Below are positions 1,973 to 63,248 of a DNA stretch of 64,000 nucleotides, in pieces; within the stretch, counting starts at the first letter, position 1; each line of letters opens with the position of its first letter. Made by a program: the position numbers and the translations under genes. The notes under the pieces are model-generated. The model saw nothing but the letters and a program-made list of their open reading frames with translations. It had not been told where the DNA came from and did not search any database. Origin of the DNA: a virus (lineage: Duplodnaviria > Caudoviricetes); the IMG/VR virus record IMGVR_UViG_2898545487_000004, positions 879-64,878 of that record; one strand, 5' to 3'.

Positions 1973-2530
1973 ATGTGGAGATCGTCGATGCACTCGACAG
2001 TAAACGCCGCGAGCGCGGCGAGCCACCCGTCATTGCAGTATGGGAAAATGTACCCGGCGCACTCAGCATGCCAGACAACTCGTTTGGATCCTTTCTCGCG
2101 GCTCTCGCCGGCGACGATGTCGCTCTGGAACCGGGTGAACGACCTGCAACGGGCAAGGACAGCCAGTTCTGGAAGTGGGATCGCAAAACACAGCAGCATC
2201 GTCCAAAGTGGCCGGTGTCAGGTGTTGTTGCTGGACCCGAAAGATCAGTCGCGTGGATCGTTAGGGACGCTCAATATTATGGACTGGCACAGCGACGCCG
2301 TCGTGTGTTCGTTGTCGCAAGTGCTCGTGCGGACTTCGATCCCGGAGAGGTTCTACTTGAGTTGGATTGCGTGCGCCGGGATTTTGCGCCGAGCCGCGAA
2401 GCGGGGGAAAGTGTTGCCCATGATGTTGCACCGTGCCTTACAGGCAGTGGCAGTGGCAGGGGCATCGAGCGCACCGGAGATACCCGCGGCCAAGACTGCG
2501 TCGTCGCCGTTGCAGGATCTGATCGGGTAA
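1973..2530 (+). CDS. Nested +1-frame ORF inside the C5-MTase gene, resembling the N-part of EcoHK31I-type beta polypeptides (start uncertain)
   Basis: Segment DWHSDAVVCSLSQVL...FYLSWIACAGILRRAAKRGKVLPMMLHRAL resembles (from memory) beta-type overlapping ORFs; ends in the phage-wide DLIG* tag. Confidence 0.62.
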   Translation: MWRSSMHSTVNAASAASHPSLQYGKMYPAHSACQTTRLDPFSRLSPATMSLWNRVNDLQRARTASSGSGIAKHSSIVQSGRCQVLLLDPKDQSRGSLGTLNIMDWHSDAVVCSLSQVLVRTSIPERFYLSWIACAGILRRAAKRGKVLPMMLHRALQAVAVAGASSAPEIPAAKTASSPLQDLIG

Positions 2531-2606
2531 GGTGGCCCGCTGAGATCGCGCCAACGCTCAACGCGCATTTCGGCACGAAGATGGGTCTCGAAGATCAACA
2601 TATAGC

Positions 2607-2615
2607 GGGGGGGGG
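2607..2615 (+). repeat. G9 homopolymer at the start of the MTase frameshift window
   Basis: atagcGGGGGGGGGaggtc; frame 2 has TAG at 2603-2605 and is open from 2606 to 3808. Confidence 0.9.
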
Positions 2616-3804
2616 AGGTCTTTTCGTTCCCGCCACCCGTATCGCTCTGCCTCAATGCGGGAGCGATGGGGCGACAGGACGCCGAGACGGAGACGCTGAT
2701 TCCTATTATCGGAGCCGTCTTCGATGATGCTCAGTTGCCCATAGCCTTCACCGCCAAAGTCTTTGGCGGTGATGCGAGCGTCGATCTCTTCCCCACCCTG
2801 CGCGCCGGCCAGTTCGACGGGTCACATGCGAATGGCGGGGTAATGCCTGCTGTGGCATATTCCATTATGCCGCTGTTCATCGGCAAGGACTTCAAAGCGC
2901 GCGAAACCGATATATCGCAGCCATTAATGGCTGCGGGGCCGGTCGGTGGCAACCAAGGCGGCGATTACATCGTGCAGCCCGCTTATGCAGTCGCGCTGCG
3001 CGGTCGGGAAGGTGGCGCAACGGCGGAACTCGGTGACGAAGTGGCGTTCACCCTGCGAACTGGCGGCGGCGGCGGTGATAAACCGCATGTTCTAGCGTCG
3101 GTCGAACCCCTCATCATTCGATGCGGCTGCGGCGCACAGTTTCGTGGCGAGATCAGCGATATCTGCTCGGAATGCGGCACGATACGCGATGCCCAAGTCA
3201 CTTATCCTGTCTCGCGCGGTGGCGCACCCGAAGTCATCCCCTTCGACACGACACAGATCACATCGAAATATAATTACAGCCACCCCAAGGCGGGTGACCC
3301 GTGTCACCCGCTTGCTGCCTCGGCGCATCCGCCCGCGGTATGCGTCACGGAACCCGTGACGCATACCCTGACGAGCGAGGGATTTGACGCGAGTGAAGAT
3401 GGCACGGGCCGAGGCAACCCCATCGTCTGTCACGGATCGCAAGACCCCGTAACATCGGACAACCTCGCCCTCCCCGTTCAGCGCAACAACGGGCTCGAGA
3501 ATGACATTCTCGAGCCGCCGAGCAAGGCCGTGCGTCGATTGATGCCGCCAGAATGCGAACGACTTCAGGGATTCCCCGACGGCTACACGCGCATCCCGGT
3601 TCGCCACTACAAGCGAAAGAAAATCACCAAAACGCGCCCCGAGGATTATTGGGAACCCGACCCGAAGGACGGTTGGTGGCTGATGACCGCCGACAGCGTC
3701 CGCTACAAGCAACTCGGGAACTCGATGCCCGTGCCCGTGATGTTTTGGATCGGCCAACGAATCACGCGAAACGTGCTTCAACACTCGCTCGACGGGATAA
3801 TCGG

Positions 3805-4470
3805 ATGACCGACTTCGACGAGCTCATCGGCGTCGCGGCGCAGCCCGCACCTCCCCTGACCGACTCCAGCGATCGCCAACGCGCTGCCGCGCTACGTGCC
3901 GCGGCGAGCGGCGCAACATTTGTCCAGCTGCGCGATCTCAAGCGACCGGTGACCGCCAGCTTCCTCGCTTCCGTGTTCGACATGGACCCGGCAACGATCA
4001 AGAAGCGCCTCCTGCCGCTCGAACCTCTGGCGCAGGTCGGCGGGCGACAGGTCGTGGTGTGGGACTTCAAGGAAGCCGCGGCGTATCTCGTCGAACCGAA
4101 GATCGACCTTGAGAAATATATCGCCTCGCTCGACTTCAAGAAACTGCCCCATCACATCAACAAGGTCTTCTGGGACGCGAAGCGCTCGAAGCTGAAATAC
4201 CTCCACGAAGCCGGCGAAGCATGGATGACGTCGGACGTGCTCGAGGTGTTCGGCCGCGCCTTCATGACGATCAAGGACCAAACGCAGTTGTTCGTCGAGA
4301 CGATGCGCGAGCGCGGGAAACTCACCGACGAGCAGATGACGTTGTTCGAGTCCCTAGTCGACGGGTTTCAGGCGGATCTGCACTCGAAACTGGTCGAGGC
4401 GCCGCGGTTGCATCAGACGCAGTCGGTCGCGGGGCAGGATCGGGATTTGGATGAGGGAGTGGAGGGGTGA
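3805..4470 (+). CDS. terS: DUF1441-family protein, terminase small subunit
   Basis: HTH-like TASFLASVFDMDPATIKKRL, then FWDAKRSKLKY...WMTSDV; upstream of GpA-type terL; ATG overlaps the preceding stop. Confidence 0.78.
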   Translation: MTDFDELIGVAAQPAPPLTDSSDRQRAAALRAAASGATFVQLRDLKRPVTASFLASVFDMDPATIKKRLLPLEPLAQVGGRQVVVWDFKEAAAYLVEPKIDLEKYIASLDFKKLPHHINKVFWDAKRSKLKYLHEAGEAWMTSDVLEVFGRAFMTIKDQTQLFVETMRERGKLTDEQMTLFESLVDGFQADLHSKLVEAPRLHQTQSVAGQDRDLDEGVEG

Positions 4471-7644: not shown

Positions 7645-7695
7645 TTCTATGTCGCGTCGATGGCATTTCGCGAGCCAGTTCGAACTGGGAACGCG

Positions 7696-7902
7696 ATGAC
7701 CGACGCAGAACTTCTTGCCGAAGCGAAAACCGCATATCACGCCCTGATGACGGGGCGCAGCGTCGTCGAGGCTCGCGACCAGAACGGCGAAATGGTTCGC
7801 TACGGCATCGCGAACGCGGGACGACTCGCAGCCTACATCGACCAACTCGAACGCAAGATTGACCCGACCAAGGCATCCGGCCCCATGAGGCTGATCGGAT
7901 GA
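7696..7902 (+). CDS. gpW-like head-tail joining protein
   Basis: AKTAYHALMTGRSVVEARDQNGEMVRY; lies between terL and portal. Confidence 0.85.
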   Translation: MTDAELLAEAKTAYHALMTGRSVVEARDQNGEMVRYGIANAGRLAAYIDQLERKIDPTKASGPMRLIG

Positions 7903-9641
7903 GCCTGTCGGAATTCGACGATCTGATCGGCGTCCCCTCCCCGCCGCCGTCAGCGTCACCGCCGCCGCAGGTGCTGGTCCCTTCCAGCGGCGGCGGTGAC
8001 ATGGCGATGGGTGGGTTCGAAGGCGCTGACCAGTTCGATCGCACCCTGTCGCTGTGGTCGCCCCCGCTTCAATCCGCCGATGCCGACATTCTTCCCGACA
8101 AGGACGTCGGCGATGGTCGCATCCGCGCGCTGCTGAACGACGACGCCTATATTCAGGGTGTCGCGCGGCTGCGCAAAGACAATGTCGTCGGCCATCAGTT
8201 CTTGCTGAACGCGCGACCCTCGATCGGCTACCTGAATCGCGAAGCGCGTCGCAAGGGTATGCCCGCGACGTTCGACGAGAATTGGGAAGAAGAGTTTCAG
8301 GAGGAAGTCGAGGAACTGTTCGATCTGTGGGCCGAAAGCCCCGACAATTGGGTCGACAGCAAGCGTCAGAACAGTTTCACCGAAATGGTCCGCCTGATGA
8401 TCGGCGTCCACCTGGCAGGCGGCGAAGTGCTCGCCACCGCCGAGTGGGACCGGGAAGGCTTTGGAGAATTCAAGACGGTCATCAACCTGATCGATCTTGA
8501 CCGGCTGTCGACCGACCCTGATCACCGCAATGACAAGATGGTCCGTGCAGGTGTTCGTTTCGACAGCCGCGGTCGTCCCGTCGCGTATCAGATCCGCGAA
8601 GGTCATCCGAGCGACGTCCAGTGGACGTATCTGTATGACCTGCCGCGCTGGCGCGAGCATCCGATCCGCACCAAATGGGGTCGGCTGCAGGTTCTGCATA
8701 TCAAGGAAGATATGCGCGTCGACCAGACGCGCGGCTTCTCGGATCTCATGTCGACGATCAAACCGTCGAAAATGGGTCACAGGCTGCGCGACGTGGCGTT
8801 GCAGCAGCAGGTTCTGCAGTCGCTCTACGCCGGCGCGATCACGTCGGAACTTCCTGCCGAACAGGTGTTCGCGCAGCTTGGCGGCGGCGAGATCAGCCCC
8901 GACGCCGTCGCGAAGGCGATCAACAGCTACGCGACCGGCTACCTCGGACAGATCGAGCAATATGTCGGGAACAGCCGCGCGCTGCAGATGGACGGCGCGC
9001 GCGTCCCCCATCTGTTTCCGGGCACCAAGTTTGAGCTCATGTCACCCGGCAAGGGTGGCGTCGTCGGCACGGACTTCGAACGATCACTGAACATGTATCA
9101 GTCGGTCGCGGCAGGTGTGTCCTACGAACAGTTCACCCACGACTATTCGAAGACGAATTATTCGTCGGCGCGCGCCGGCGAAGGCAACACCTGGAAGTTC
9201 ATGCAGGCGCTCAAGCGCCTCATTGCCGAGCGCGCCGCGAACAGCGTCTATCGCCTGTTCCTCGAGGAAGGGGTCAACCAGAATAAGTTGACCACGTTCC
9301 CGAAGGCCAAGGCAGGACTTCTCTACACTGACGCGGGCCGCGATGGTCGCCTCAACATGGCGTTCTCGGCGCTGGCGCGCGCGGACTGGATCGGCGCGGC
9401 GCGCGGCCAGATCGACGAGCTAAAGGAAACCGAAGCCGCGATCCTGCGCATCGATAACGGACTCTCCACGCGCGAAGAGGAACTGGCGCGGCTCGGCAAG
9501 GACTGGCGCCGCGTCTACCGCCAGCGCGCCCGCGAGAAGCGCGAGGAAGAACGTCTCGGGCTCACATTCGGCGATCACGCCATGAACGGTGCCGCGCGCA
9601 CCGAACCCCAATCACAGAGCGAAGAGGAATCCGCACCATGA
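7899..9641 (+). CDS. Portal protein, lambda family
   Basis: 580 aa; QVLHIKEDMRVDQTRGFS, GVSYEQFTHDYSKTNYSSARA, GQIDELKET. Confidence 0.93.
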   Translation: MSLSEFDDLIGVPSPPPSASPPPQVLVPSSGGGDMAMGGFEGADQFDRTLSLWSPPLQSADADILPDKDVGDGRIRALLNDDAYIQGVARLRKDNVVGHQFLLNARPSIGYLNREARRKGMPATFDENWEEEFQEEVEELFDLWAESPDNWVDSKRQNSFTEMVRLMIGVHLAGGEVLATAEWDREGFGEFKTVINLIDLDRLSTDPDHRNDKMVRAGVRFDSRGRPVAYQIREGHPSDVQWTYLYDLPRWREHPIRTKWGRLQVLHIKEDMRVDQTRGFSDLMSTIKPSKMGHRLRDVALQQQVLQSLYAGAITSELPAEQVFAQLGGGEISPDAVAKAINSYATGYLGQIEQYVGNSRALQMDGARVPHLFPGTKFELMSPGKGGVVGTDFERSLNMYQSVAAGVSYEQFTHDYSKTNYSSARAGEGNTWKFMQALKRLIAERAANSVYRLFLEEGVNQNKLTTFPKAKAGLLYTDAGRDGRLNMAFSALARADWIGAARGQIDELKETEAAILRIDNGLSTREEELARLGKDWRRVYRQRAREKREEERLGLTFGDHAMNGAARTEPQSQSEEESAP

Positions 9642-12599: not shown

Positions 12600-12986
12600 A
12601 TGAGCAAAGACATGACCCTGGTTACCTCGATTCACGAGCTTCGTTACCGTGATGGCGACGAGCGCAAGATCGTCGAGCCGAACCAAACCGTCGAGATTCC
12701 TGCGAGCATCGCAGCGGAATTTCTCGCGCAGAAGGCGGCTCGTGAGCCGACCGAGGATGAAGCCGCCGTCTACGAGACGGTCGCCGCGCGTCGCGCCAAG
12801 ACTGCCCCGACGGATGATGCGAAGGCCGCTGCGGATGCGAAGGCCGCTGCGGATGCGAAGGCCGCTGCGGATGCGAAGGCCGCTGCGGATGCGAAGGCCG
12901 CTGCGGATGCGAAGGCCGCTGCGGATGCGAAGGCCGCTGCGGATGCGAAAACTGGCGGCAAGAACCCCGCCGACGCCATCGGCTGA
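12600..12986 (+). CDS. Virion-region hypothetical protein with DAKAAA repeats
   Basis: Follows capsid gene; globular N-terminus then low-complexity repeat. Confidence 0.75.
   Translation: MSKDMTLVTSIHELRYRDGDERKIVEPNQTVEIPASIAAEFLAQKAAREPTEDEAAVYETVAARRAKTAPTDDAKAAADAKAAADAKAAADAKAAADAKAAADAKAAADAKAAADAKTGGKNPADAIG
12816..12949 (+). repeat. Perfect 18-bp tandem repeat GATGCGAAGGCCGCTGCG x7.4
   Basis: Seven identical units plus a partial eighth. Confidence 0.97.
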
Positions 12987-12989
12987 TCG

Positions 12990-33739: not shown

Positions 33740-34044
33740 CCGATCAAATCCTCCATCGACCCCGTCGCACCCAACAGATCCTCAATCTCCACCTGGTCGG
33801 GATCGCGAGCCGCAGCGTCACACCTAGACATGTCGCGCCTCAGCCGGTCACCCTCGACCAGTGCAGCCTTCAAAGCCGCGACGGGGTCCACATTCGATCG
33901 CTCGACGTGGAATGCCCCCTGCCGCCCGCGAACCGTCGCCGATGCCAGCGCGCCGCCGAACGACTGCGGCCAGACATGCACCTGGGAACCCGCCGCAACC
34001 GCAGCACGGATCATGTCGGCAAGGTCCCCGGCCACGCCCGTCAC
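33736..34044 (-). CDS. Hypothetical protein
   Basis: Coupled start/stop overlaps at both ends; ends MEDLIG*. Confidence 0.7.
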   Translation of the reverse strand: MTGVAGDLADMIRAAVAAGSQVHVWPQSFGGALASATVRGRQGAFHVERSNVDPVAALKAALVEGDRLRRDMSRCDAAARDPDQVEIEDLLGATGSMEDLIG

Positions 34045-34322
34045 CCGATCAGATGGTCGAGGCCGAGCGCCGAGGCGTAGACTTCGTAGACGGCGCGGAA
34101 TTCCTTCACGTCAGCGACGTTCTTCTTACGATCGCGGACGATCTGGCGCATGATCTTCGGGTCGTAACCCTGCGACTTCGCTTCATTGTAGACGTCGCGG
34201 ATGTCGTCGGAGACGCCCTTCCGTTCTTCCTCGAGACGTTCGACGCGCTCGATATATTGGCGCAGCTGCGCATCGGCCGACCCGTTGTGGCCCTCGCCGG
34301 CAATCTCGTCTTCATCATCCAT
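34041..34322 (-). CDS. gapR: DUF2312 / GapR-family DNA-binding protein
   Basis: QLRQYIERVERLEEERKGVSDDIRDVYNEAKSQGYDPKIMRQIV. Confidence 0.9.
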   Translation of the reverse strand: MDDEDEIAGEGHNGSADAQLRQYIERVERLEEERKGVSDDIRDVYNEAKSQGYDPKIMRQIVRDRKKNVADVKEFRAVYEVYASALGLDHLIG

Positions 34323-34346
34323 GGAATCACTCCTGAATTGCTATAC

Positions 34347-34361
34347 TCACGTCTTACGTGA
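34347..34361. promoter_or_regulatory. Operator upstream of gapR, overlapping the sigma gene stop codon
   Basis: acTCACGTCTTACGTGAgtc. Confidence 0.78.
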
Positions 34362-35012: not shown

Positions 35013-35333
35013 TCAGTCGTCGCGGCGCGAAAGCCAGACCGTTTCGATAGGTGAGACTACAGACGCGCTGCCTTGGCAGAGACGTTCGATAAGGAACTCT
35101 GCGAAGTTGACAGCGTGCCGGTGAATCTGCGCGTTAGATTGCGGGAAACGCGGATAATTGATCAGATTGACCGCGAAGCCGCTCTCCATCCCCATCGTGA
35201 AGACGAAGTCGCACGGAACGATCGAGACGCACGCTCCTTGAAGGCACCATTCGCGCGAGGCCTGAACAATCTGGTCGCGCGAACCGGCGATGTAGATGGT
35301 GGCGACGAATGTCGGCGACGAGACAGCTTTCAC
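35013..35333 (-). CDS. Conserved phage hypothetical protein
   Basis: TIYIAG...CVSIVPCDFVFTMG...LINYPRFP. Confidence 0.7.
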   Translation of the reverse strand: MKAVSSPTFVATIYIAGSRDQIVQASREWCLQGACVSIVPCDFVFTMGMESGFAVNLINYPRFPQSNAQIHRHAVNFAEFLIERLCQGSASVVSPIETVWLSRRDD

Positions 35334-36103
35334 CCGATCATCTCCTGCATTTCACAGAGGAATCCGCACCCTCCAAAGTTGACTCCCTTCATGGTGGTCG
35401 GCCAGTCGCCAGGGATCTCATCTGGGAAGCAGCGAATATTGCGTGTCTTGCCATCGGGACCTTTCTCGCGTCCGATGATCACGAGACGCGCGCCGAAGCG
35501 CCGACACTGCTCCGAACGTCGTTTGAAGACTTCGGGGAACCATTTTCGGATCAACGACCAATAGTTCGGCGACGATGCTTTGACGCATCCGAGGCAGTTG
35601 CCATTCGGCATTCCGATTTCGTAAACGAAAGGTCGACGGATGCCGTTCTTCTTCAGAATTTCATGCGTGTCGCGCTTTTTGATCCCCATCTCGATGAGTG
35701 GCGCGCGCTGGTGTAGATTGGCGTGGTTCGCAACCATGCGGTCGAACCGCTTCGCGTCGAGTTTGTCGGACGTGTACCCCCAGAAATGAATGTCAGACGG
35801 CAACTGAAAATTCATGCGCGGCACGACCTTCATCGCACCTGTGCACGGCGCGCCGAGCATTCCCGATAGATATTTCTTGTGCTCGAATACCTCGTCGACG
35901 TTCGCATATTCTTCGCTGCGAATTCGAATGATGTCCTTGCCGAACCATTTTTCGAGATCATCGATGAAGCGACGGCTGTCCTCATGGACAGAATCCCCAA
36001 GGTCACAATGGACGGGCTGCGCGCCTGGATCGTTCAGCAGAACGAGATGTGCCATCACGGCACTGTTCGCTCCGTCGACCCAAAGAAGTCTGCGACCATT
36101 CAT
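35330..36103 (-). CDS. PAPS-reductase-like (adenine nucleotide alpha-hydrolase) protein
   Basis: Degenerate PP-loop VDGANSAV, HEDSRRF, GAPCTGAMK, PLIEMG, NGNCLGCVK. Confidence 0.75.
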   Translation of the reverse strand: MNGRRLLWVDGANSAVMAHLVLLNDPGAQPVHCDLGDSVHEDSRRFIDDLEKWFGKDIIRIRSEEYANVDEVFEHKKYLSGMLGAPCTGAMKVVPRMNFQLPSDIHFWGYTSDKLDAKRFDRMVANHANLHQRAPLIEMGIKKRDTHEILKKNGIRRPFVYEIGMPNGNCLGCVKASSPNYWSLIRKWFPEVFKRRSEQCRRFGARLVIIGREKGPDGKTRNIRCFPDEIPGDWPTTMKGVNFGGCGFLCEMQEMIG

Positions 36104-38754: not shown

Positions 38755-39317
38755 GGTTGAAGTTCCGCGAAGCGCGCAGCAAACCGTGTTTTCGCCGCGC
38801 TAGGGACCAGACATTCAACAGTCACATCGGCAGGCTCACCCTCGATCTGCCAGGGTGCGGGTGGCGATCCCATGATCTGCTGCGCCTCGGCAAGCAGAAC
38901 GGCGTTGTCCGCTTCCTTGATCGACGGATGCAATTCCTCGGGCACACCGAAGCGTTCGGCGATGACGCGCCAGAGCACGTCTTCCATTTCGTGATAACCG
39001 CCGAGATATTTCTTGATCGGCCGCGGCACGTCGACGAGGTATGCCTCGGTTGCATCGTGCAGCAACGCTTGCAGCGCATGTTCAGGCGGCACGACGAGCG
39101 AGACGAGAACGCTGTGCTCGGCGACGCTATAGAACCGCGAGCAGTGGCCGGCATACCGGCACATGTTCGACAAGGCATGAGCGATGTCGACGATTAGCAC
39201 CTCGCCTGGTCGCGGGTCGAGCGGCCAGAACTGGACGCTCGAATAGGTCTGCATCCAATTGCCACGGCGCGTCTCGCCTTCGGCGCGATTATCATATGTT
39301 TCGCTGACGTTCGTCAT
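38751..39317 (-). CDS. HD-domain phosphohydrolase (YfbR-like nucleotidase)
   Basis: DIAHALSNMCRYAGH...YSVAEHS...LLHDATEAY. Confidence 0.9.
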   Translation of the reverse strand: MTNVSETYDNRAEGETRRGNWMQTYSSVQFWPLDPRPGEVLIVDIAHALSNMCRYAGHCSRFYSVAEHSVLVSLVVPPEHALQALLHDATEAYLVDVPRPIKKYLGGYHEMEDVLWRVIAERFGVPEELHPSIKEADNAVLLAEAQQIMGSPPAPWQIEGEPADVTVECLVPSAAKTRFAARFAELQP

Positions 39318-39724
39318 CCTATCAAATCCTCCAATTCCGGCGCCGCACTCACAGGCGCGCCGATCAAATCGTCGAGATCCACGGCGGTGACCGCCGATCC
39401 ATCCAGCAGCGCGCGATGCGCAACTGAGACAGCAAAACCTTCTGCGAGAGCCGCGTCGAAACAGGCCAGAACAGCGTCGATCACACCGCGACCTTGGCCG
39501 CGCGCGACGACGATCCGCTGGTAGTTGTCGGGACCGCTGCGGCGCAGGGTGAACGCCATGCAGCGATATCCCCTCCCCTCGCGTTCGATGTCGTCGAAGT
39601 AGAGGCCCTGCTGGCCGCAGCTGGCGTGGAAGTCCGACCATCCCTGCACCTTGCGCGCGGCCTCGATCTGTGGATCGGATTTCCACATAGTGACGTTGCG
39701 GGATTTATGGATCTGGTCGGCCAT
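39314..39724 (-). CDS. Hypothetical protein
   Basis: 136 aa; ends with two DLIG motifs. Confidence 0.7.
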   Translation of the reverse strand: MADQIHKSRNVTMWKSDPQIEAARKVQGWSDFHASCGQQGLYFDDIEREGRGYRCMAFTLRRSGPDNYQRIVVARGQGRGVIDAVLACFDAALAEGFAVSVAHRALLDGSAVTAVDLDDLIGAPVSAAPELEDLIG

Positions 39725-48446: not shown

Positions 48447-50470
48447 TCACCCTATCAGTGACTCTATCAGCCATGAATCCATCCCGATCGCCTCGCGCGG
48501 CAGCGATCCGCCATTGACGCAACGCGCGCACGCGCCTGTTGACACGTATCGGACGCCATCGGCATGACCATGGCGGCAACTGGCGCCGGTGTAATATTTC
48601 AGGCGGGCACGGCGTGCCTGGTCGCGTGCGGGGGATTTGGGGCGGGCCATTATACCAGTCGTTCCCCGTCGCAGTACGCCTCGCCGGACGCGACACAACT
48701 GGTCTCGAATTCATACGCGCTCCACCAATCATCGGCGAGGTGATATTGGCGAGCGTGACGTTTCAGCGCACGTCCCATTGCTTCATTCGCTTCGGACTCC
48801 GTGCTGCCGTAGGTGAGGAATTCGAAGTTTTCCGTTTCCAGACGAACAATCCAGATCATGCTGCTGTCACCTTCGTTACCGTAGCGTGCCGCGGCAAATC
48901 GAATTCACCCCTATCGGTGACCAGTAACAGCATGTTGCCTGGCCGATTATGGACGTCGACAACGCGGCGCGGGCCATGGAATAAGATGCGATCGCCGACT
49001 CTCAGGTCGCGGACTAGAGTTTGCATATCATGACCTCTCTCTCTATCTCAATGAACCGTCGCCGCGGTCATCTCGCGGCATATCAGCGCGTCAATAGCCC
49101 GAGCGCGCTCCGCGACGTTCGACGGGATGACGGGCGGCGCTTCGCCGGCCCCGAGCAACAATTCAGGCTCTTCCAACATCGTCATGATCCAGGCGACATC
49201 AAACCAATCGTCGAATTCGGAGTCCCTCATCCCGTCGATATTCATCGGGAACGTGAGGCGGGCGGCGAGCTCGCGCGTCATGGGGTCGGTGTAGGTCATC
49301 GGATGTTCTCCCTATTCATCTTGTCCGCGACGCGTTGCGCCGCTTCCCATGACCGGAACAAGCGCAACCGCCCGCCCTTCCCTTCGGACTCCAAAAACGT
49401 CACTCCGGTTGCCGCGACGCGCTGATAATCAGGGTGGGGTGGGAAGAATTGACGCGTAACGCGCCACCCTTTCGGATGGCCGCTGCTCGCCTTCCATTGT
49501 CCATGGTAGAGCGCGTCGGCGAGAGTCATGGCGGGGCGGTTCAGAGCGGCGCTCACGTCGCCGACTCCTGCCCGACGATGTAAAGCGCGCCATCGTCGCC
49601 GACATATGTCTCAAGCGACGGGTGGCGCGCGACCAGGTCCGACAATGCTCGGCCGATGCGGCGATTCAGGTCGCGGTCATCACAAGCCCATATGTCGCGG
49701 TCGCGAAACCCTGCACCATGGCCGGCGCGTTCGAGATACAGATCGCTGCCGATTTGCTTGCGAACATGATTCCATGCCTGATTGCAAAACGTCGCCAGAT
49801 TGACGTCATCGGTTACGTTCACCGCGCGCGCCGCAGTTATAAACTGGTCGCATTCCGCGATAACAGCGCGCAATGTCGCGTCGGGGCAATCGTATATTGT
49901 GCCGGTGTCGCGCGCTTCGCGTTCCTCGCTGCACGCTTCGTCCGCTTCGCGGTATTGCGCGTCCTGCAGCATGGTGGAGAGGAATCCCTCGACCATGGGA
50001 TTGGCGCTGAATATATCTTGCCTTTCGGCATCCGGACTTCGCATCTCAACGATTCCTTTCAATCAGCCCGCAGCCCGCGGGAAAATCAGACGAGTCCATC
50101 GCGAACAGGTCGCCGCCGGCGCCGTCGCATTCATGGGCGATGAATTTCGGGATTGGCGGCGTTGCGGCGATCGACACCGCTAAGAGGGTGACGGCGACGC
50201 CAGCGGCTAGGCCGGTGAGGTAGTAGCGGATCATTGATCCACCTCCCTCACGCCAACAGCGACAATCGTATTCCCGCTGCGAAACGTGCGACCAGTCGCC
50301 ATATGCACGGCCATGATATCCAGCTGCTCGGCGACCATGCGGTCGCGGCTTGCTTCGCTGACACAGTGAGCGATTGACGCCGTGCCGTCGCTAAGTTCGG
50401 CGATGACGTGATACTTGACGCGCTCGAAAGTCCTCCGGAGTACGGCGGGCGTATTGTCGGGCAGATCCAT
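48447..50470 (-). CDS. Cluster of small early-type genes (48447..48650, 48650..48859, 48856..49026, 49048..49299, 49296..49556, 49553..50062, 50046..50234, 50231..50470)
   Basis: Chain of co-oriented ORFs with start/stop overlaps; 48447..48650 has a YYTGASCRHGH...CARC Zn-like motif. Confidence 0.6.
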
Positions 50471-53457: not shown

Positions 53458-53536
53458 TTTCCTAATCGCGCCCGGCCATCCCGAACCCCGCGCAGCTCCT
53501 AGAGATTTTACCGATTTCCTCCCGGCCCCGGCCACC

Positions 53537-56077
53537 CTACCCGATCAACATATCCGCCATCATTTGCACCGCGCCCATGCGTCGATAAGTGCGCTGCTTC
53601 CCGTGCAGTTTGAAGCGGAACTGCTCATCGGATTTCTCCCATCCGGGGATGCGATTCATGCAGCGCCCGACCATCGCAGCCTTGGCAGCATCATACTGCT
53701 CCTGACGCCCGCCAAGACAGTCGATCCATATCTCCCGCAGACACGTCACGTCACGCGGCTGACCGTTCTCAGCGTCGAACACCCCTTCCGCAGGTATCGA
53801 CTTGTCGAGCCAATCGGCAATGATGCCAATGGTCGCATCGTCACTCGTCTCGACGCGCCGGCTTTCCTGCAGGTGCGACGCGATCGTGCGGGACATGGGG
53901 TCGGTGAGATATAGCGGCAGGATGCCGCGCGGCTGCTTCTCGCGCATCTGCCGGTACAGCGTGACCGCTTCGGCCCATATCTGGTCAAGGTTCGCCTCGA
54001 GCGCGCTGATGTCGATCTCGGAGACCGCACACATGACAGGCCAGAAGCGGCGCCCACCCGTGTCGTCCTTGAGATATTCGCGGTCATTGGTCGAACCGAT
54101 GAAGATACACTGGCGAGGGTATTCCCCTGCCCGCCTCGCGTAAGCCAGGCGCACGCGATCTTTCTGCCTGCTGATGAATGCCTTGATCGAGCGCACGTCG
54201 CCGCGGTTGAAGCCCGACAGTTCAGGGATCTCCATGATCCACGCGCCCTGCATCAGTTCGACCATCTGCTTCTGGTCGTGGAAATCACCGTCGAGTTCGG
54301 CGAACCAGCTGCGGCCGAGCGTCTGGATGAAGGTCGATTTGCGCTTCCCCTGAAGACCCTCAATGATCACAGCGAAGTCGAACTTGTGGCCGGGCTCATA
54401 AATCCGGGTGACCGCGGCGATCAACATGAGGCGCGCTATGTCTCGATTATAGGCGTTGTCGGTCGTACCCAGATAGTCGATGAACAGTCGCTCTGCGCGC
54501 GGTACACCGTCCCACTCGACCGATTCCAGATATTCCTTGATCGGATGGAACGGGTTGTTGTCCGCGGCGAGGACAATGGAGGATTTCAGGTCGCGATCAG
54601 TGACCTTGGTTGAATAGCCGCCTTGCGTCTTCGGCGCCTCGATCACGGAACGGATCGCGAAGTCGCGGTCATCGCTCCACAGGTCGCCGTTGATGCCGTC
54701 GCGGACGGTCCACATGCGACCTTGAAGCTGTTTCACCGGTTTTGCGGCGCGGGCGCGCTGGAACATCTTACCTGGTTCGCGGCGCTGCACCGTCTCATGG
54801 GTGAAATCGTTGAGTTGCGGCACGCCTTCGAAGCGCGGATCGTTCTTCAGGATGAGTTCGACGTTGTGGAGCGTCGAGCGCAGTCCCCCTTCCTCGTTGA
54901 AGTCGAGCAGCGAGATCCAGTCGAGGTTGCGCGGCTCGTCGTCATCAGCGCCGCCGTCAAGCGCCGCCAACGTCTCCTTGATATCGTCCTCGGTGACCGC
55001 GTCGTCGTCGGATTTGGCTTCGGGATCGGTGTCACCCGAGGCAAGGAACTCGTCGAGATCGCCAGATTCGTCATCCGCATCGTCGAAAGCCGTCGAAGGC
55101 TCGAGATCGTCCAGATCGGAACCGGCGAGCAGCATGTCGGTGATTTCGGACTTGCGCTGGTCGATGATCCACGCGCGAACCGACGCCATCGTGACCGGCG
55201 CGCGGCGGTTCCGCCCGAAGCTGCGCCACTTGCGCGGCATTTCGCGTGCATCGAATTTTTCGCTGCGCTGACTGTGCTTGAGCCAGAGGTCGTAACCTTC
55301 CTGCGCGCCTCCGAATTGGTGGTGAAGCGCCTGACCGAGCGTCACCCAGTCGTGATAATCGTCGATCCTGGCATCGGAGAGCGCGTCCAGTTCATCTTCC
55401 AACTGACCGGGTTTATAGGAAAGGGGTTCGCGGGTCTCGAAGCCATAGGTTTCCTCGTGCGCGACGGTCAGTTTCTCGAGTCGCTCGGTGCTGATCGCAG
55501 GAGACACGCCGAGTTCGAGCATGTCGAGATCGAATGGACGTTTCCAGGTGTAGCGTTCGCCCGAGTCGGGGTGAATCGAAGGGGGCATCGCGACCTGTTT
55601 GTCGGTGCCGAAAATCTCGATTTCCCAGTCATAGTGCCACTTGCCGTTGGCGCTGCGATGTTTCCCCTCAGAGACGGCGATTTTGCGGCTGCGATAGGAG
55701 CGGGAGCAGGTGAAATACAGGTGGCGCGATGCACCTCCACTGCCCGACTTGACGCATGGCAGCGTGTCGAGCGCGACATCGGGGAATAGTTCGCGCAGCT
55801 TGTTCCATGCCTCTGTGGCGAGCTGGGGCACGCGAATGTCGACGTCGATGACATGGAGATACGTGCCGTCGACCAGGCGAGACGGCTCACCGAGACGCAC
55901 ACCGACGTTCAGGTCGGGATTGTAGGTTTCGCGTAACCTGTCGAATGTTGGGGGATCGATGCTCGTCCAGCGGTTCTCGACAGGCTTTTTTGTGCGCGGT
56001 CGCAGCCAGTGGATCGCGAAACCCGCGGCGCGAAACGGCGCAATAGTCGTCAGAATATCTTGGCCGTCGTCAGCCAT
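53537..56077 (-). CDS. Bifunctional primase-polymerase / PriCT_2 / VirE-family helicase
   Basis: LNVGVRLG, IDVD, HLYF, PPSIHP; DDYHDWVTLGQALH; EGLQGKRKST, EIPELSG, RLAYAR, GSTN, GGRRFWP. Confidence 0.93.
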   Translation of the reverse strand: MADDGQDILTTIAPFRAAGFAIHWLRPRTKKPVENRWTSIDPPTFDRLRETYNPDLNVGVRLGEPSRLVDGTYLHVIDVDIRVPQLATEAWNKLRELFPDVALDTLPCVKSGSGGASRHLYFTCSRSYRSRKIAVSEGKHRSANGKWHYDWEIEIFGTDKQVAMPPSIHPDSGERYTWKRPFDLDMLELGVSPAISTERLEKLTVAHEETYGFETREPLSYKPGQLEDELDALSDARIDDYHDWVTLGQALHHQFGGAQEGYDLWLKHSQRSEKFDAREMPRKWRSFGRNRRAPVTMASVRAWIIDQRKSEITDMLLAGSDLDDLEPSTAFDDADDESGDLDEFLASGDTDPEAKSDDDAVTEDDIKETLAALDGGADDDEPRNLDWISLLDFNEEGGLRSTLHNVELILKNDPRFEGVPQLNDFTHETVQRREPGKMFQRARAAKPVKQLQGRMWTVRDGINGDLWSDDRDFAIRSVIEAPKTQGGYSTKVTDRDLKSSIVLAADNNPFHPIKEYLESVEWDGVPRAERLFIDYLGTTDNAYNRDIARLMLIAAVTRIYEPGHKFDFAVIIEGLQGKRKSTFIQTLGRSWFAELDGDFHDQKQMVELMQGAWIMEIPELSGFNRGDVRSIKAFISRQKDRVRLAYARRAGEYPRQCIFIGSTNDREYLKDDTGGRRFWPVMCAVSEIDISALEANLDQIWAEAVTLYRQMREKQPRGILPLYLTDPMSRTIASHLQESRRVETSDDATIGIIADWLDKSIPAEGVFDAENGQPRDVTCLREIWIDCLGGRQEQYDAAKAAMVGRCMNRIPGWEKSDEQFRFKLHGKQRTYRRMGAVQMMADMLIG

Positions 56078-56489: not shown

Positions 56490-56562
56490 TTTTAGTCGCG
56501 CGATGTGGTGAAACGCGGCGACTCGCATGGTGCGAGCCGTTACCGCACAAAGGGACACGAAC

Positions 56563-57129
56563 ATGAGCATCGAAGCCTTGCTCAAGGCGCACACCGAGGC
56601 GCTGGAAGCCAACACCGAACAACTGAAAATTCTCAACGCCGGTCGCGCCGAAGCGATCGAAAAGCTGACCGCGAACGATGCGGGTGCGACGGCGACGCGC
56701 AAGCCGCGCGCATCGAAGAAGGCCGAGGAAGCGACTGCAGCGGCCGAACCCGCGTCGGCTCCGAAGGACGACACTGCCCCGGCGTCGTCGAAGACTGGGA
56801 AATGGAACCCCGACATCAGCGACGACGGACTCCGCGCGCTCGCCGGTAAGCTCGTTGCCAAGGTCGCACCCGACCAGTCGAATAAGGCCGAGATCGCCGG
56901 CGCGCTCACGTCGATCAATCAGGAACTCGGCACGCCGAAGCTCGTCGGAGCCGACAGCACGCTCGACGACGATGGCAAGCGCAAGGCCGCGTTCTTCCTG
57001 ACGCGGTTCGTCAACGACATGTCGGTCGATTTCAACGCCGACTATGACTTCGGCGAAGATCCGCTGCGCCAGGCGGTCGAGCCTGCCGCGGAAGAAGCCG
57101 CTGGCGACGACGGCTTCGACATCGGCTGA
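56563..57129 (+). CDS. Chi-like replication-region hypothetical protein
   Basis: MSIEALLKAHTEALEANT; Ala/Lys linker; acidic tail DDGFDIG*. Confidence 0.75.
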   Translation: MSIEALLKAHTEALEANTEQLKILNAGRAEAIEKLTANDAGATATRKPRASKKAEEATAAAEPASAPKDDTAPASSKTGKWNPDISDDGLRALAGKLVAKVAPDQSNKAEIAGALTSINQELGTPKLVGADSTLDDDGKRKAAFFLTRFVNDMSVDFNADYDFGEDPLRQAVEPAAEEAAGDDGFDIG

Positions 57130-57146: not shown

Positions 57147-58346
57147 ATGCTAAGGGACTCCCTCCACGCCAAACTCGCGCCGTCCGCGGCAAACTTCTGG
57201 GCGAATTGTCCAGGGTGGGTTGAAGCGTGCGAGGGCATCCCGAACGACACCAATCGTTACGCCGCCGAGGGCACCGTCGCACACAAATATCGCGACTTCT
57301 GCCTGAAAACCGGCACGTTTGCCGAGCAATTCATCGGCCAAACCGAGATTTACCAAGGGACGGAGTCGCGCTGGAACGGCGAATCGTTCGACGTCGCACC
57401 TGTCACCTACGAATTTACCTGGACCGAGGATGACGCGCGCTTGCTGCAATTCGGCATCGACGAGGTTCGCATCTTCGAGGGTGAATTCTTCGGGGAGTAT
57501 CGCGTCGATATATCGAAGTGGCTTGGACCTGATCAGTTCGGCACGCTCGACGCGGCGATCGTCTCCGATGACCTGATCGTCATCAACGACCACAAATGGG
57601 GTCGCTACATCCCGGTCTCGGCGGTGCAGAACAAGCAGATGATGCTGTATGCGCTCGGCTTCTGGTGGAACGTCGCGCGCAACGTGTCGTCCGCAAAGGA
57701 TTTCCTGATCATCATTGATCAGCCGCGCTGCTACGGCGGTGGCGGTCGATGGCACGTCACCCTCGACGAGTTGCTGGCGTTCGGCGAGACGATCGGCGCG
57801 CTTGCCGAAGCAGCCCTGACGCCGGGCGCTCCGCGTCGCGCCGGAACGCAATGCGGATATTGCCTGCGGCTTCAGCACTTCGGGTGCGACGCGCACGACA
57901 ATCTCATGAAGGATCTGACCATGGAAGCTGAACAGGTGCGCGAGATTGGTCGCGCCGTGACGCCCGAGCAGCGCAGCCGCCTGATCCTCCATAAAGGGAT
58001 GATCGAAAAGTGGCTCGACGAACTCGCGAAGAATGCACTGGTCGATTATCTCGACGGGAAGCAGGTTCCGTTGCTGAAGGCCATCGAAGGTCGCGCGAAC
58101 CCGCGAAAATATGTCGACGATGAGGCAGCGACAGTGCGTCTCACCGAAACGCTCGGCGACCGCGCCATGGCGCCGCCCAAAGTTCTCTCGCCGACGCAGC
58201 TGGAAAAGCTGATCGGCCCAACGCTCACGGACGCCGCATTCGGCGATCTGATCACCCGCAAACCTTCGACGCCGGTTCTCGTCCCGGTGGAGGATAGCCG
58301 CCCGGCAATACCCGTCGTGACGGCGATGTTCGACGATATCGAATAG
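57147..58346 (+). CDS. DUF2800 Cas4-like PD-(D/E)XK exonuclease
   Basis: HAKLAPS...CPG, AAEGTVAH, FGTLD, DHKWG, QMMLYALG, QCGYC. Confidence 0.9.
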   Translation: MLRDSLHAKLAPSAANFWANCPGWVEACEGIPNDTNRYAAEGTVAHKYRDFCLKTGTFAEQFIGQTEIYQGTESRWNGESFDVAPVTYEFTWTEDDARLLQFGIDEVRIFEGEFFGEYRVDISKWLGPDQFGTLDAAIVSDDLIVINDHKWGRYIPVSAVQNKQMMLYALGFWWNVARNVSSAKDFLIIIDQPRCYGGGGRWHVTLDELLAFGETIGALAEAALTPGAPRRAGTQCGYCLRLQHFGCDAHDNLMKDLTMEAEQVREIGRAVTPEQRSRLILHKGMIEKWLDELAKNALVDYLDGKQVPLLKAIEGRANPRKYVDDEAATVRLTETLGDRAMAPPKVLSPTQLEKLIGPTLTDAAFGDLITRKPSTPVLVPVEDSRPAIPVVTAMFDDIE

Positions 58347-58596: not shown

Positions 58597-58620
58597 TCCA
58601 CACGAATAGGAGAAATTATC

Positions 58621-59310
58621 ATGGCAGAACAATTGAACGTTCCCGACAAACGCGTTGTGAAAATGAATCGCGTCCGCCTGTCGTGGACCGACAGTCTCAA
58701 GACGAAGTCGCGACCGAAAGGCGTCGACGACGGCAAGGAAAAATATAACTGCAACATCATCATTCCGTCCGACCACCCCAAATTCAAAGAATATCTGCAG
58801 GCCTGCGTGGGCGCGATCGAGGAATCGGGCGCGCAGCAGTGGGGCAAGAAGGACGCATGGAAGACGATTCAGGAGGACAATCCCAAGCGCATCTGCCTGA
58901 AGAAGGGCGAGCGATTCAAGAACGAAGACGGTGAAATCTATGACGGCTACGAAGGCAATTACGCTTTCCCCGCCACAGGTCCGAAGGGTGGCGACGAACG
59001 TCCAAAACTGCTGGATCGCCACAAGCGCAACGTGGAAGAAGCCGATATTCTCGACGTGTTCTACAGCGGTAGTTACGCCGACGTGATCGTCTCGTTCTTC
59101 GGCACTGACAAGGGGGGTCGTGGCATCTTCTGTCAGGTCAACGGCATCCGCTCGCACCAGGAAGGCGACCGTCTCGCGGGCGGCGGTATCACCGTCACCA
59201 ACGACATGTTCGACGATCTCGAAGACGACAATGCGTTCGACGACGCGCCGGCCTCATGTGACGGTGAATCGTCATCGTCCAGCGGCGGCGACGATTTCGA
59301 TATCGGCTGA
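58621..59310 (+). CDS. ssb: DUF2815 single-stranded DNA-binding protein
   Basis: VRLSW...KYNCNIII...FYSGSYADV...GIFCQVNGI; acidic tail DDFDIG*. Confidence 0.88.
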   Translation: MAEQLNVPDKRVVKMNRVRLSWTDSLKTKSRPKGVDDGKEKYNCNIIIPSDHPKFKEYLQACVGAIEESGAQQWGKKDAWKTIQEDNPKRICLKKGERFKNEDGEIYDGYEGNYAFPATGPKGGDERPKLLDRHKRNVEEADILDVFYSGSYADVIVSFFGTDKGGRGIFCQVNGIRSHQEGDRLAGGGITVTNDMFDDLEDDNAFDDAPASCDGESSSSSGGDDFDIG

Positions 59311-59318
59311 TCCGCGAA

Positions 59319-59366: not shown

Positions 59367-59388
59367 CCAACTGACCAGAGGAAGCAGG

Positions 59389-61311: not shown

Positions 61312-61323
61312 TGCGGTGATGAT

Positions 61324-62823
61324 GTGATGCACGTCGTCGAAGCGCGTCAATGGCTTGCGCTAAGCGTGGCCGACTCCTTCCTCGACAGCCCACCTGTTCC
61401 ATTTTCGTCGTTCGATGTGTCGCCCGGCGCGCGCTGGTTCCAGTTGCTCATTATCGAAAAGCTGGAAAAGCTGATCGCTCTCGGGTTTAGGCGAATTCTG
61501 GTGGTGCTTCCGACAGGTGGGGGGAAGACCCGCCTCGCGATCGAACTGTTCAAATCGGCGCTGAAGCACGGTCACACCGCGCAATTCGTCGTGCATCGCA
61601 AGGAACTGACAGATCAGACGTCCGAAGCGTTCGTCGAACAGGATCTTCCGCACAGCTTCATCACGTCGACCGACCCTTATGACCCGTCCTTCGCCGCGAC
61701 GATCGCCGGCGTTCAGACTCTCGTGTCGCGTCTGGCGCGTCTCGCCGCGCCGGATCTGGTCATCATTGATGAAGCGCATCACGCCGCCGCGGGATCATGG
61801 TCGAAGGTGATGACGGCGTACCGCGGCGCGGTGCAGATCGGTCTGACCGCAACACCGCAGCGCCTCGACGGCAAGGGTCTCGACGGCCAATTCGACGCGA
61901 TGATCATCGGCCCGACGGTCCAGCAGTTGATCGATGAAAAATTCCTGTCCCCCTATAGTTATTATGCGCCTGACATTCCCGACGTCTCGAAGATCCCGTC
62001 ACTAGCGGGCGATTACAAGCGCGACAGTCTGCGCGAGCTCATGGACCGTCCACATCTCATCGGTGACATGGTCGAGCACTATGATCGCCTCGCGCGCGGC
62101 AAGACCGGCATCCTGTTCGCGACATCGATCGAGCATAGTCGGAACCTCGCGGCGGCGTTCAGTGCCGAAGGCTTCAGGACCGCCCACATCGACGGAACGA
62201 CGATGGACCGTCACGAGCGGCGCCGCATCATGGAGGATTTCAAGGCCGGATATTATCCGTTGCTGTCGGCAGTCGATCTGATCGGCGAAGGGCTCGACGT
62301 GCCGGGTGTCGTCTATATCGGCGGCGGTCGCCCGTCCAAATCACTCGTCTTCCACAAACAAAGCATCGGTCGCGCGCTGCGCATGTTCCCAGGGAAAGAT
62401 GAAGCTGTCATCTGCGACCATGCGGGCAATTTTATGCACCACGGCGGGCCGACGTCTGAATATGACTGGTCGTTGCAAGGACGCGCTACCGCAGCCGGCG
62501 CGCGCGGCCCGTCAGACGCGATACCGGTACGCCGCTGCCTGCAATGCTTTCAGGTCAGCTTCAGCCCGGCGAAAGTCTGCCCGTGCGGCGCAGAGTTTCC
62601 GGTGCAGAGTCGCGAGATCGAGACGCGCGAGGGGAAACTGACGAAGGTCGACGCCGCCGCGGCGAAGGAAGCGAAACGCAAGGCGCAGATCGCCCGCGTC
62701 CTCGAAGAGAAGGAATGCACCCGCTGGTCCGACTTCGAGGCGCTTGCACGGAGGCGCGGTTACAAGAACCCCGGAGGATGGGCGCGCCTCAAGATGAGTC
62801 TCAAATCAGGAGCCGGTAAATGA
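61324..62823 (+). CDS. Superfamily 2 DExH helicase with C-terminal Zn motif
   Basis: LPTGGGKT, IDEAHH, LTATP, QSIGRALR, CLQC...CPCG. Confidence 0.92.
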   Translation: MMHVVEARQWLALSVADSFLDSPPVPFSSFDVSPGARWFQLLIIEKLEKLIALGFRRILVVLPTGGGKTRLAIELFKSALKHGHTAQFVVHRKELTDQTSEAFVEQDLPHSFITSTDPYDPSFAATIAGVQTLVSRLARLAAPDLVIIDEAHHAAAGSWSKVMTAYRGAVQIGLTATPQRLDGKGLDGQFDAMIIGPTVQQLIDEKFLSPYSYYAPDIPDVSKIPSLAGDYKRDSLRELMDRPHLIGDMVEHYDRLARGKTGILFATSIEHSRNLAAAFSAEGFRTAHIDGTTMDRHERRRIMEDFKAGYYPLLSAVDLIGEGLDVPGVVYIGGGRPSKSLVFHKQSIGRALRMFPGKDEAVICDHAGNFMHHGGPTSEYDWSLQGRATAAGARGPSDAIPVRRCLQCFQVSFSPAKVCPCGAEFPVQSREIETREGKLTKVDAAAAKEAKRKAQIARVLEEKECTRWSDFEALARRRGYKNPGGWARLKMSLKSGAGK

Positions 62824-63248
62824 GCGAATTCGACGATCTGATCGGAGTCCCATCCCCGCTGCCGCGCCGCAAGCAGTCCGAAAAGGCGATCCAGAACGAA
62901 ATTCTGGTCGCCGTGTCGCAGCAGCCCGGCGCGCTCGTCTGGCGCAACAACACGGGCCAGGCGTGGCAGGGTCAGCGCCTGCGTCTCCCGGTCGGGCAGA
63001 AGTTCGAAATGCTGCCCGGCATGGTGGTGCTTGCAGAAGCGCGACCCGTTGATTTCGGCTGTCCGGGTTCACCTGACATCATCGGCTCCGTAAAAGGTCG
63101 AGCGGTAGGAATTGAGGTCAAGGCGGACGGTGGTTACCAATCTCGTTTACAAAAGAGATTTGAAGCGGCCTGGAGCGGGACAGGCGCATTGTATGGATGC
63201 GCCAAATCGGTCGCCGAGGCGTTAGGAATCATTGACAGATCACGCTAA
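62820..63248 (+). CDS. VRR-NUC domain nuclease
   Basis: EKAIQNEI, WRNNTG, GSPDIIG, GIEVK...Q. Confidence 0.9.
   Translation: MSEFDDLIGVPSPLPRRKQSEKAIQNEILVAVSQQPGALVWRNNTGQAWQGQRLRLPVGQKFEMLPGMVVLAEARPVDFGCPGSPDIIGSVKGRAVGIEVKADGGYQSRLQKRFEAAWSGTGALYGCAKSVAEALGIIDRSR

Follow-up and report, generated by a model that had tools for sequence, protein, structure and literature searches.

A short acidic-aliphatic peptide tag at the termini of unrelated proteins in a Chi-like prophage

Results

The Prophage and Its Tagged Proteins

We analyzed a 64,000-nt stretch of viral DNA (G000:C19:22512-86511; hereafter the window) in which about 16 of roughly 91 proteins carry the same short peptide tag at one terminus. 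The window is a prophage, with a G+C content of 60% vs. 67% in the surrounding 4.8-Mb genome, and the prophage was not found in close relatives within the host's genus. The 3′ end of an integrase gene and an AlpA-like gene mark its left edge, followed by methylases, the terminase small subunit (TerS, DUF1441 type), a lambda-type terminase large subunit (TerL), gpW, portal, S49 protease, capsid, and tail genes; beyond the tail genes lie a long leftward block of small genes and then the replication module. The nearest named relatives belong to Casjensviridae: Ruegeria phage DSS3-P1, Synechococcus virus S-ESS1, Achromobacter phage AchV4, Xylella phage Sano, and Salmonella phage Chi. Gene calling with self-trained codon usage gave 84 to 91 genes, and roughly 50 open reading frames (ORFs) of the window were covered by PHROG or Pfam searches.

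The tag consists of one or two acidic residues and two aliphatic residues, usually with Gly last, and takes the forms [FLM]-[DE]-[DEH]-[LM]-I-G and F-D-I-G in the window (Table 1). Ile-Gly-stop ends 11 of the 84 to 91 called genes (those with ends at 3808, 7902, 12986, 32255, 33736, 34041, 35330, 39314, 53537, 57129, and 59310), and the numbers expected from the residue frequencies, the proteome's own Ile-Gly dipeptide rate, and the host rate are 0.39, 0.47, and 0.66, respectively (binomial P from 2e-12 to 9e-11). Among the host genes, 25 of 3,425 (0.73%) have such an end, none of them in an acidic context. The original prediction that fewer than one case would arise by chance agrees with these expected numbers, and the host proteome, which it proposed to compare, shows the low rate just given. 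In three proteins a second copy of the motif precedes the terminal one by 10 to 14 residues, and three others, TerS, the portal, and the VRR-NUC nuclease, open with FD[D/E]LIGV (MTDFDELIGV, MSLSEFDDLIGVPSP, and MSEFDDLIGVPSP, respectively).

To score tags irrespective of the exact tip, we applied a rule requiring at least two acidic residues among the last six, a hydrophobic residue among the last three, and no basic residue. The rule matched 15.4% of the window proteins, 11.5 to 16.9% of those of five relatives, and 2.9% of the host genes. In the control phages, acidic ...DF ends were confined to gp2.5 and gp4 of T7 and absent from lambda.

All 13 C-terminal and three N-terminal peptides on which the original prediction was built were found in place, and so was the codon variation it described (Ile ATC, ATT, and ATA; Gly GGA, GGC, and GGG; and all three stop codons). 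Taken as genes, 11 C-terminal and three N-terminal cases are well supported. ORF 48447-48698 is probably a real gene despite its low gene-caller score, because it has PHROG matches and a relative (L004) ending QFEELLG. ORF 1973-2530, the source of an LQDLIG end, is most likely spurious: it lies out of frame inside ORF 631-2727, and there the reading frame of the larger ORF has matches to C5 methylase, Hint, and LAGLIDADG families. The exonuclease was counted as a further carrier; its MFDDIE end retains the FDD-hydrophobic core without the Gly.

Table 1. Proteins of the window with a tag or tag-like terminus (positions in the window)
Protein	Coordinates	Strand	Terminus and tag position
C5 DNA methylase, C-terminal part	2666..3808	+	ends ...SLDGIIG; tag codons 3791-3805
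TerS (DUF1441/PF07278 in homologues)	3805..4470	+	N-terminal MTDFDELIGV; tag codons 3814-3831; Pro/Ala-rich linker next
gpW-like head-tail adaptor Ad1	7660..7902	+	ends ...GPMRLIG (7885-7899); no acidic context
Lambda-type portal	7899..9641	+	N-terminal tag MSLSEFDDLIGVPSPPP; codons 7914-7931
128-aa protein directly after major capsid gene	12600..12986	+	ends ...NPADAIG (12969-12983)
N6/N4 DNA methylase	32255..33739	-	ends ...DDLESLIGGGLHDNLEDLIG; terminal tag 32258-32272, second copy 32294-32308
102-aa protein, no assigned function	33736..34044	-	ends ...EDLLGATGSMEDLIG; copies 33739-33753 and 33769-33783
GapR-like DNA-binding protein (PF10073), nucleoid-protein homologue	34041..34322	-	ends ...GLDHLIG (34044-34058)
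PAPS-reductase-like protein	35330..36103	-	ends ...CEMQEMIG (35333-35347)
136-aa protein, no assigned function	39314..39724	-	ends ...DLDDLIGAPVSAAPELEDLIG; copies 39317-39331 and 39359-39373
Probable 83-aa gene	48447..48698	-	ends ...LIESLIG (48450-48464)
Primase-helicase (Prim-Pol, PriCT_2, VapE-like domains)	53537..56077	-	ends ...MMADMLIG (53540-53554)
Conserved protein, no assigned function, beside exonuclease gene; Chi gp4 counterpart	56527..57129	+	ends ...GDDGFDIG (57112-57126)
DUF2800 exonuclease	57147..58346	+	ends ...AMFDDIE (58329-58343)
SSB (Enc34/gp2.5 type)	58621..59310	+	ends ...SSSSSGGDDFDIG (59293-59307) after Ser/Gly linker
VRR-NUC-type endonuclease	62820..63248	+	N-terminal tag MSEFDDLIGVPSP; codons 62829-62846

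Conservation of the Tag and Its Flavours in Related Phages

We compared orthologues among eight complete genomes, those of the window phage and seven others, and in further related sequences, which are cited by handle where they have to be told apart. Comparative evidence came from TerS and the protein that binds single-stranded DNA (SSB). Among TerS homologues from public assemblies (44 to 100% identity), 20 of 21 carry [DE]x[DAS]LIG at residues 5 to 12. In the alignment, L7, I8, and G9 are at least 90% conserved, the acidic residues preceding them vary, and a hypervariable, indel-rich linker separates them from the folded core; in the most distant homologue (33% identity), DLLDDLLG is found about 45 residues in instead. 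TerS is tagged in seven of the eight complete genomes, and that of Sano has a tag-like DDIGL four residues short of its C-terminus.

The original prediction stated that the phage SSB carries the tag. This holds for the real SSB at 58621-59310, which has an OB-fold Enc34_ssDNA-bd core (PF10991, E 9e-24; phrog_112) modeled by AlphaFold2 (AF2) with a predicted local distance difference test (pLDDT) score above 90. The tagged ORF 39314-39724, which had been called SSB, has no family match in profile searches. In all 120 SSB homologues among the matches listed, a low-complexity linker of Ser, Gly, Ala, and Lys leads to DD and a hydrophobic tip, with LLG in 22, FDF in 13, DLL in 10, and DFG in nine of them, and with 12 ending in IG. 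The SSB fits a layout of disordered linker, acidic run, and hydrophobic end, and the blocks of its tail have pLDDT values of 53 and 47.

Across the compared phages, the tag system is widespread in the Chi-like family but non-uniform. DSS3-P1 has DDLLG or DDILG ends on the SSB, the exonuclease, the primase-helicase, the gp4 counterpart, and the post-capsid gene, and N-terminal tags with ...DLLG... on TerS (MSDDLSIDDLLGG) and the portal (ESLDLLGI) and with ...DLFG... on the GapR-like protein (GLDDLFGV). Chi has ...DDEV on about 10 proteins, including primase gp2, gp4, exonuclease gp6, SSB gp7, TerS gp11, gp18, gp42, gp58, and gp62, with gp52 ending in WDEI. The tips are ...DLI, ...DMI, and ...DLM in S-ESS1; ...DLL, ...PLA, ...MLA, and ...ALF in AchV4; and ...DILG, ...DPLG, and ...DVLG in G001, an IMG/VR phage. 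RHph_X2_30 has ...DDDI on replication proteins and F-x-D-I-L-G on small proteins and the N-termini of TerS and the portal. Prophage L037 has ...DLDL and L036 ...DFDF tips, and in L035 the integrase and an AlpA-like protein too end in ...LIG.

The tip of a given protein follows these flavours. Orthologues of the primase-helicase end in GDDLIG (L038), IEDLLG (DSS3-P1), DDEDEV (Chi), DGFDMI (S-ESS1), LDDDI (RHph_X2_30), LEELDL (L037), and EDIEALF (AchV4), and those of the exonuclease in MFDDLIE (L039), MFDDLDDE (L038), EFDDLD (L008 and L036), QFDDLD (L037), VDDLLG (DSS3-P1), and DDDDEV (Chi). Counterparts of the protein encoded beside the exonuclease gene end in DDDDILG, EEDDV, GGDLM, DDDMLA, EDDEI, EDPLG, GDDLDL, and EDFGIG. 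Post-capsid genes, matched by gene position with no BLAST link found, end in GEDLLG (DSS3-P1), GAEDEV (Chi), GEEDI (RHph_X2_30), LEDPIG (G001), and AEAAIG (L035). The C5 methylase part has relatives ending QFEGLIG (L033) and FRALIG (L035), the orthologue of the N6/N4 methylase at 32255-33739 ends DPMLAILG in G001, and two annotated PAPS reductases of Chi end EEFEDDEV (gp42) and KMWDEI (gp52).

The position of the tag can change. On TerS it is N-terminal in alphaproteobacterial phages and C-terminal in Chi, S-ESS1, and AchV4, and in the GapR-like and VRR-NUC families it swaps between the two ends among relatives. The GapR-like orthologues have N-terminal tags in DSS3-P1 (MSGLDDLFGV), S-ESS1 (LSEIDDLLSG), and G001 (SSPDVLGD), and RHph_X2_30 has a C-terminal one (DDDDGEV). 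The VRR-NUC proteins of L038 and L039 open with MTEFDDLIGT and MSDFDDLIGVPTP, and the S-ESS1 orthologue has SEIDDLLK at the C-terminus. The portal tag lies outside the Pfam portal domain, which begins at residue 48, and its counterparts read ESLDLLGI (DSS3-P1), PFNDVLGL (G001), EFADVLG (RHph_X2_30), DTEALLGG (AchV4), SEFDDLIGV (L033), and FDIDALIGT (L035).

Judged from these comparisons, the tag peptide is kept by selection and independent of position, and its flavour has evolved in concert across unrelated proteins within each lineage. The original prediction had proposed selection on the peptide and looked to related phages for conservation of the tag; the TerS and SSB homologues retain it while the adjoining linkers diverge.

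Peptide, DNA Signal, and Traces of Copying

As the original prediction had estimated, six tags overlap the next gene's start codon: this is true of six of the 11 C-terminal tags, where the overlapping codon is ATG or GTG. Four other tags lack a neighboring gene downstream; a further three sit at N-termini, and three occur as internal duplicates. The heptamer TGATCGG is 3-4x over-represented on both strands of the window; we rejected it as a DNA-level motif, the excess being largely the tags themselves. In relatives at ~80% protein identity, tags are kept with synonymous changes while flanking residues differ, and the primase-helicase tag reads ADMLIG (ATG TTG ATC GGG) in the window vs. GDDLIG (GAT CTT ATT GGG) in L038. 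The evidence supports selection acting on the peptide rather than on the DNA, because both the TerS and SSB homologues and the synonymous changes in close relatives keep the tag.

Some similarities do extend to the nucleotide level. Three LEDLIG tags (32258-32275, 33739-33756, and 39317-39334) have the unusual codon string TTGGAGGATTTGAT in common, and the 5′ ends of the portal (7899-7950) and VRR-NUC (62820-62865) genes differ at three of 39 nt, the VPSP linker included. Short gene ends thus seem to have been copied between genes. Separately, the tag ends at 2530 (2520-2540, + strand) and 53537 (53530-53547, - strand) are followed by the same sequence, TGATCGGGTA[A/G]GGTGGCC[C/G]G, which occurs at those two places only.

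Neighboring Genes and Other Observations

The end of Ad1 may be its family's own conserved C-terminus rather than a tag, orthologues ending in GPMRILM, GPMRLVG, GPMYFGG, and GPLRPLF. Seven of the eight genomes conserve L-x-[DE]-L-A-x-x-L-[AG]-stop as the C-terminus of TerL (5397-7589), and in Sano the protein ends in FGATLG; the conserved end, which bears a faint likeness to the tags, may be a helix docking on the portal or TerS.

Methylase ORFs occupy three sites of the prophage (631-3808, 4467-5357, and 32255-33739), the gene at 4467-5357 being of the N6/N4 type and lying between TerS and TerL. The C5 methylase gene at 631-3808 has an intein-like insertion with Hint_2 and LAGLIDADG homing-endonuclease domains (residues ~70-437 of ORF 631-2727) and resumes as ORF 2666-3808 in a different frame, a change that could be due to a frameshift, to another insertion, or to an error in sequencing. 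An ECF-type sigma factor gene (Sigma70_r2 and r4) adjoins the GapR-like gene (region 34041-34901). In L039, a close relative whose polymerase is 86% identical to that of the window, a gene for an Acb2/Tad1-hairpin protein (anti-CBASS/Thoeris sponge; L039:137-430) immediately precedes the exonuclease gene. In the window, the 80-aa ORF that follows directly after the exonuclease gene (58354-58596) had no Pfam match.

Discussion

A Proposed Docking Handle Read in Trans

The tag has the hallmarks of a short linear motif: a few well-conserved residues beside a linker that evolves quickly, occurrence at either terminus, and tandem copies. Together with the concerted change of the tips, these features lead us to read the tag as a docking handle on a flexible linker, which a shared partner surface, or a small number of them, would recognize in trans. 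It is the best explanation available to us, and we hold it with about even confidence. The tag sits on a flexible linker at the N- or C-terminus of DNA-handling proteins, among them the SSB, the primase-helicase, the exonuclease, the VRR-NUC nuclease, three methylase ORFs, the GapR-like protein, TerS, the portal, and several proteins with no assigned function. According to this model, the partner surfaces reading it would co-evolve with it, and docking would gather replication, recombination, DNA-modification, and packaging proteins at one place. A bolder version of the model, which we consider doubtful, has a single co-evolving reader, of phage or host origin, assembling the replication, recombination, modification, integration, and packaging proteins on phage DNA as a clamp-less "toolbelt" that would organize all of the DNA metabolism of a siphophage; the tip would serve as a code, specific to each lineage, by which co-infecting relatives would be prevented from using one another's parts.

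The agreement of tips within genomes, which favors the docking model, was assessed for five protein sets in 12 genomes by shuffling genomes within each protein set: none of 20,000 permutations reached the observed value, a result that overstates the case, the compared genomes being related and two of the five sets being partly defined by gene position. Several observations weigh against the docking model. RHph_X2_30 (DDDI vs. DILG) and L037 (DLDL vs. DLSDLIG) apparently divide two sub-flavours between different sets of proteins; this casts doubt on a single reader, and there may be more than one. The tag system is weak in Sano, and the tip-independent rule matched 8.8% of the proteins in Sano and 6% in G001, the latter not significant. 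Part of the tip agreement within genomes could stem from the copying of gene ends.

The search for a reader has likewise gone against the model. None of the candidates considered (the SSB core, the DNA polymerase, the HslV-like peptidase, and clamps sought with two profiles) was supported, and of the original prediction's docking motif on one hub, the tethered motif stands, with its conservation, tandem copies, placement at either terminus, and concerted flavours, while the tests of candidate hubs were negative. The SSB core as a reader in cis was rejected: the AF2 model, built with 120 homologues, leaves the tail at pLDDT ~50. The SSB and polymerase genes lie in one frame with a single TGA between them, and we built a single-chain model that joins the final 30 residues of the SSB to the polymerase through the read-through linker, using a polymerase alignment; the polymerase reached a pLDDT of 90.7 and the tag block 26, in a model in which the tag is not a free C-terminus. 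The window polymerase (59389-61311) has no Pfam family match, and the fold of its AF2 model (pLDDT 90.7) matches archaeal PolB and E. coli Pol II, which are family B polymerases. Those of Chi, Sano, and DSS3-P1, at the same place in the module, belong to family A, and the tags persist there. The modeled fold thus indicates a replacement of the polymerase in an otherwise common phage backbone. The window and DSS3-P1 have the hydrophobic-hydrophobic-Gly flavour in common despite their different polymerase families, and the polymerase is therefore an unlikely common reader. Homologues of the window polymerase keep a hydrophobic C-terminus, GWL...LAA.

The HslV-like peptidase, an Ntn hydrolase encoded at 52358-53149 with no Pfam match, was rejected as the reader, its gene having been found in the window phage only among the eight genomes. 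Searches for a phage clamp gave, for PF02768, a single locus on contig C16, presumably host dnaN, and none in the prophage; PF02916 had no match in the prophage either, a weak negative, as the control search with that profile also matched nothing. Mimicry of the host SSB was rejected as well, host SSB-like ORFs ending in DDDVPF, DDEVPF, or DDHVPF and not in LIG. Possible readers include TerL and the SNF2-type helicase, both universal and without an acidic tag, the tagged proteins themselves, and host factors.

Alternative Explanations

The strongest rival, which we regard as unlikely, is that the tags are cis-acting DNA-mimic tails, each of which would bend back onto the surface with which its own protein binds DNA and make that binding more specific, their tips having become alike through gene conversion or the copying of gene ends. 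All carriers with an assigned function handle DNA, as do the integrase and the AlpA-like carrier of L035, and the codon string common to three tags and the near-identity of the portal and VRR-NUC 5′ ends are traces of such copying. The tails of T7 gp2.5 and Enc34 ORF6 compete with DNA, and their removal alters DNA binding (PMC5686142). Yet a pocket for the same tip would be required in each of about fifteen unrelated folds, and each pocket would have to track the changes between lineages. The LIG of TerS is conserved while the acidic residues before it vary; no cis docking of the SSB tail appeared in the AF2 model; and the portal carries its tag at the N-terminus, outside the portal domain. 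Another rival, improbable in our view, sees in the tags an imitation of a host motif, by which phage proteins would attach to a conserved hub of the host, for instance the beta sliding clamp or the proteins that bind the host SSB tail. The flavour does sort roughly by host group (hydrophobic-hydrophobic-Gly in phages of alphaproteobacteria, DEV in enterobacterial Chi, and DLI in the cyanophage), the prophage has no match to the two clamp profiles, and the tags resemble acidic SSB tails. The bacterial clamp-binding consensus, however, is QL[SD]LF or QLxLxL, and the tags lack its Gln and its spacing; the clamp pocket is conserved across bacteria and does not predict lineage-specific tips; the host's own SSB-like ends differ, as noted above; and two flavours, DDFDF and DDDI, occur among phages of Rhizobiales alike.

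A degron was among the ideas of the original prediction. Such a signal, or one for docking on a protease, with either the HslV-like peptidase of the phage or a host AAA+ protease as its reader, is decidedly improbable. The prophage encodes an HslV-family peptidase-like protein, the N-terminal 20 residues of the lambda portal are removed during head maturation, and C-terminal tails docking on HslV or proteasome rings are a known mechanism. Against these precedents, the peptidase gene was not found in seven other tag-bearing genomes, the carriers include the abundant, stoichiometric SSB, portal, and TerS, and the ...LIG and ...DIG ends are unlike the non-polar, ssrA-type LAA that ClpX or SspB reads, with three of the tags at the N-terminus. 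Were the peptide a mere by-product of a nucleic-acid signal, either a Shine-Dalgarno sequence with ATGA/GTGA coupling or a recombination linker at gene ends, one would expect the start-codon overlaps and the TGATCGG excess described above, along with GAGGAT (Glu-Asp), which lies at Shine-Dalgarno distance in three overlapping tags. We find this very improbable all the same: tags without a downstream gene, N-terminal tags, and internal duplicates fall outside such a signal, the codons vary, the class of peptide persists in relatives although their DNA and tips differ, most tagged genes of Chi are followed by gaps of 55-67 nt, and many other last codons are found at coupled junctions in the window. 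Scarcely credible, finally, is the notion, also raised originally, that the C-terminal Gly serves as a ubiquitin-like conjugation handle. Eleven proteins do end in Gly, but the last residue of orthologous tags is V, I, L, F, A, or E, di-glycine is absent, three of the tags stand at the N-terminus, and no conjugation enzymes were found among the roughly 50 searched ORFs.

Significance and Comparison with Known Systems

We found no description of such a tag in Chi-like phages in the literature. New here are the ...LIG lineage; the N-terminal tags of TerS, the portal, and VRR-NUC; the swapping between ends; the tandem copies; and the methylase, GapR, and integrase/AlpA carriers. If the docking handle is real, one short peptide would define a large share of the interaction network in the widespread Chi-like (Casjensviridae) phages, packaging, through TerS and the portal, would be physically tied to replication and DNA modification, and the peptide would offer a portable tag for recruiting cargo to phage DNA.

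The closest counterpart within the family is the DEV tail of Chi, where the same protein set shows the same co-switching of tips. The window lineage differs in using ...LIG, in placing it N-terminally on TerS, the portal, and VRR-NUC, and in its tandem copies and its methylase, GapR, and integrase/AlpA carriers. The bacterial SSB tip (DDDIPF) is likewise an acidic-hydrophobic terminal peptide on a disordered linker that makes protein contacts in DNA metabolism; there one tail has many readers, whereas here many tails have one sequence.

In T7, the acidic, Phe-tipped tails of gp2.5 and gp4 dock on the gp5 polymerase, and the tail of the Enc34 homologue has been described (PMC5686142). The resemblance lies in an acidic run and a hydrophobic last residue on the SSB and the primase-helicase; the window SSB, moreover, belongs to the structurally gp2.5-like Enc34 family (PF10991), some relatives of which end in DDFDF. 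Unlike T7, with its two tailed proteins, the tag phages carry the peptide on 10-17% of the proteome, with TerS, the portal, methylases, a nuclease, and a homologue of a nucleoid protein among the carriers; some of the tags are N-terminal, and the tip is aliphatic with Gly. In T4, gp43, gp33, gp55, and ligase have interchangeable clamp-binding termini on variable linkers, functional also when internal and read by gp45 (PMC2988020 and PMC7892883). There, too, nearly alike hydrophobic-acidic termini are attached to unrelated proteins through variable linkers; the prophage, by contrast, has no match to two clamp profiles and has more carriers, packaging and structural proteins among them. If the docking handle holds true, the principle known from T7 and T4, where it involves two to four proteins, would be broadened to over a tenth of a proteome and to tags at the N-terminus.

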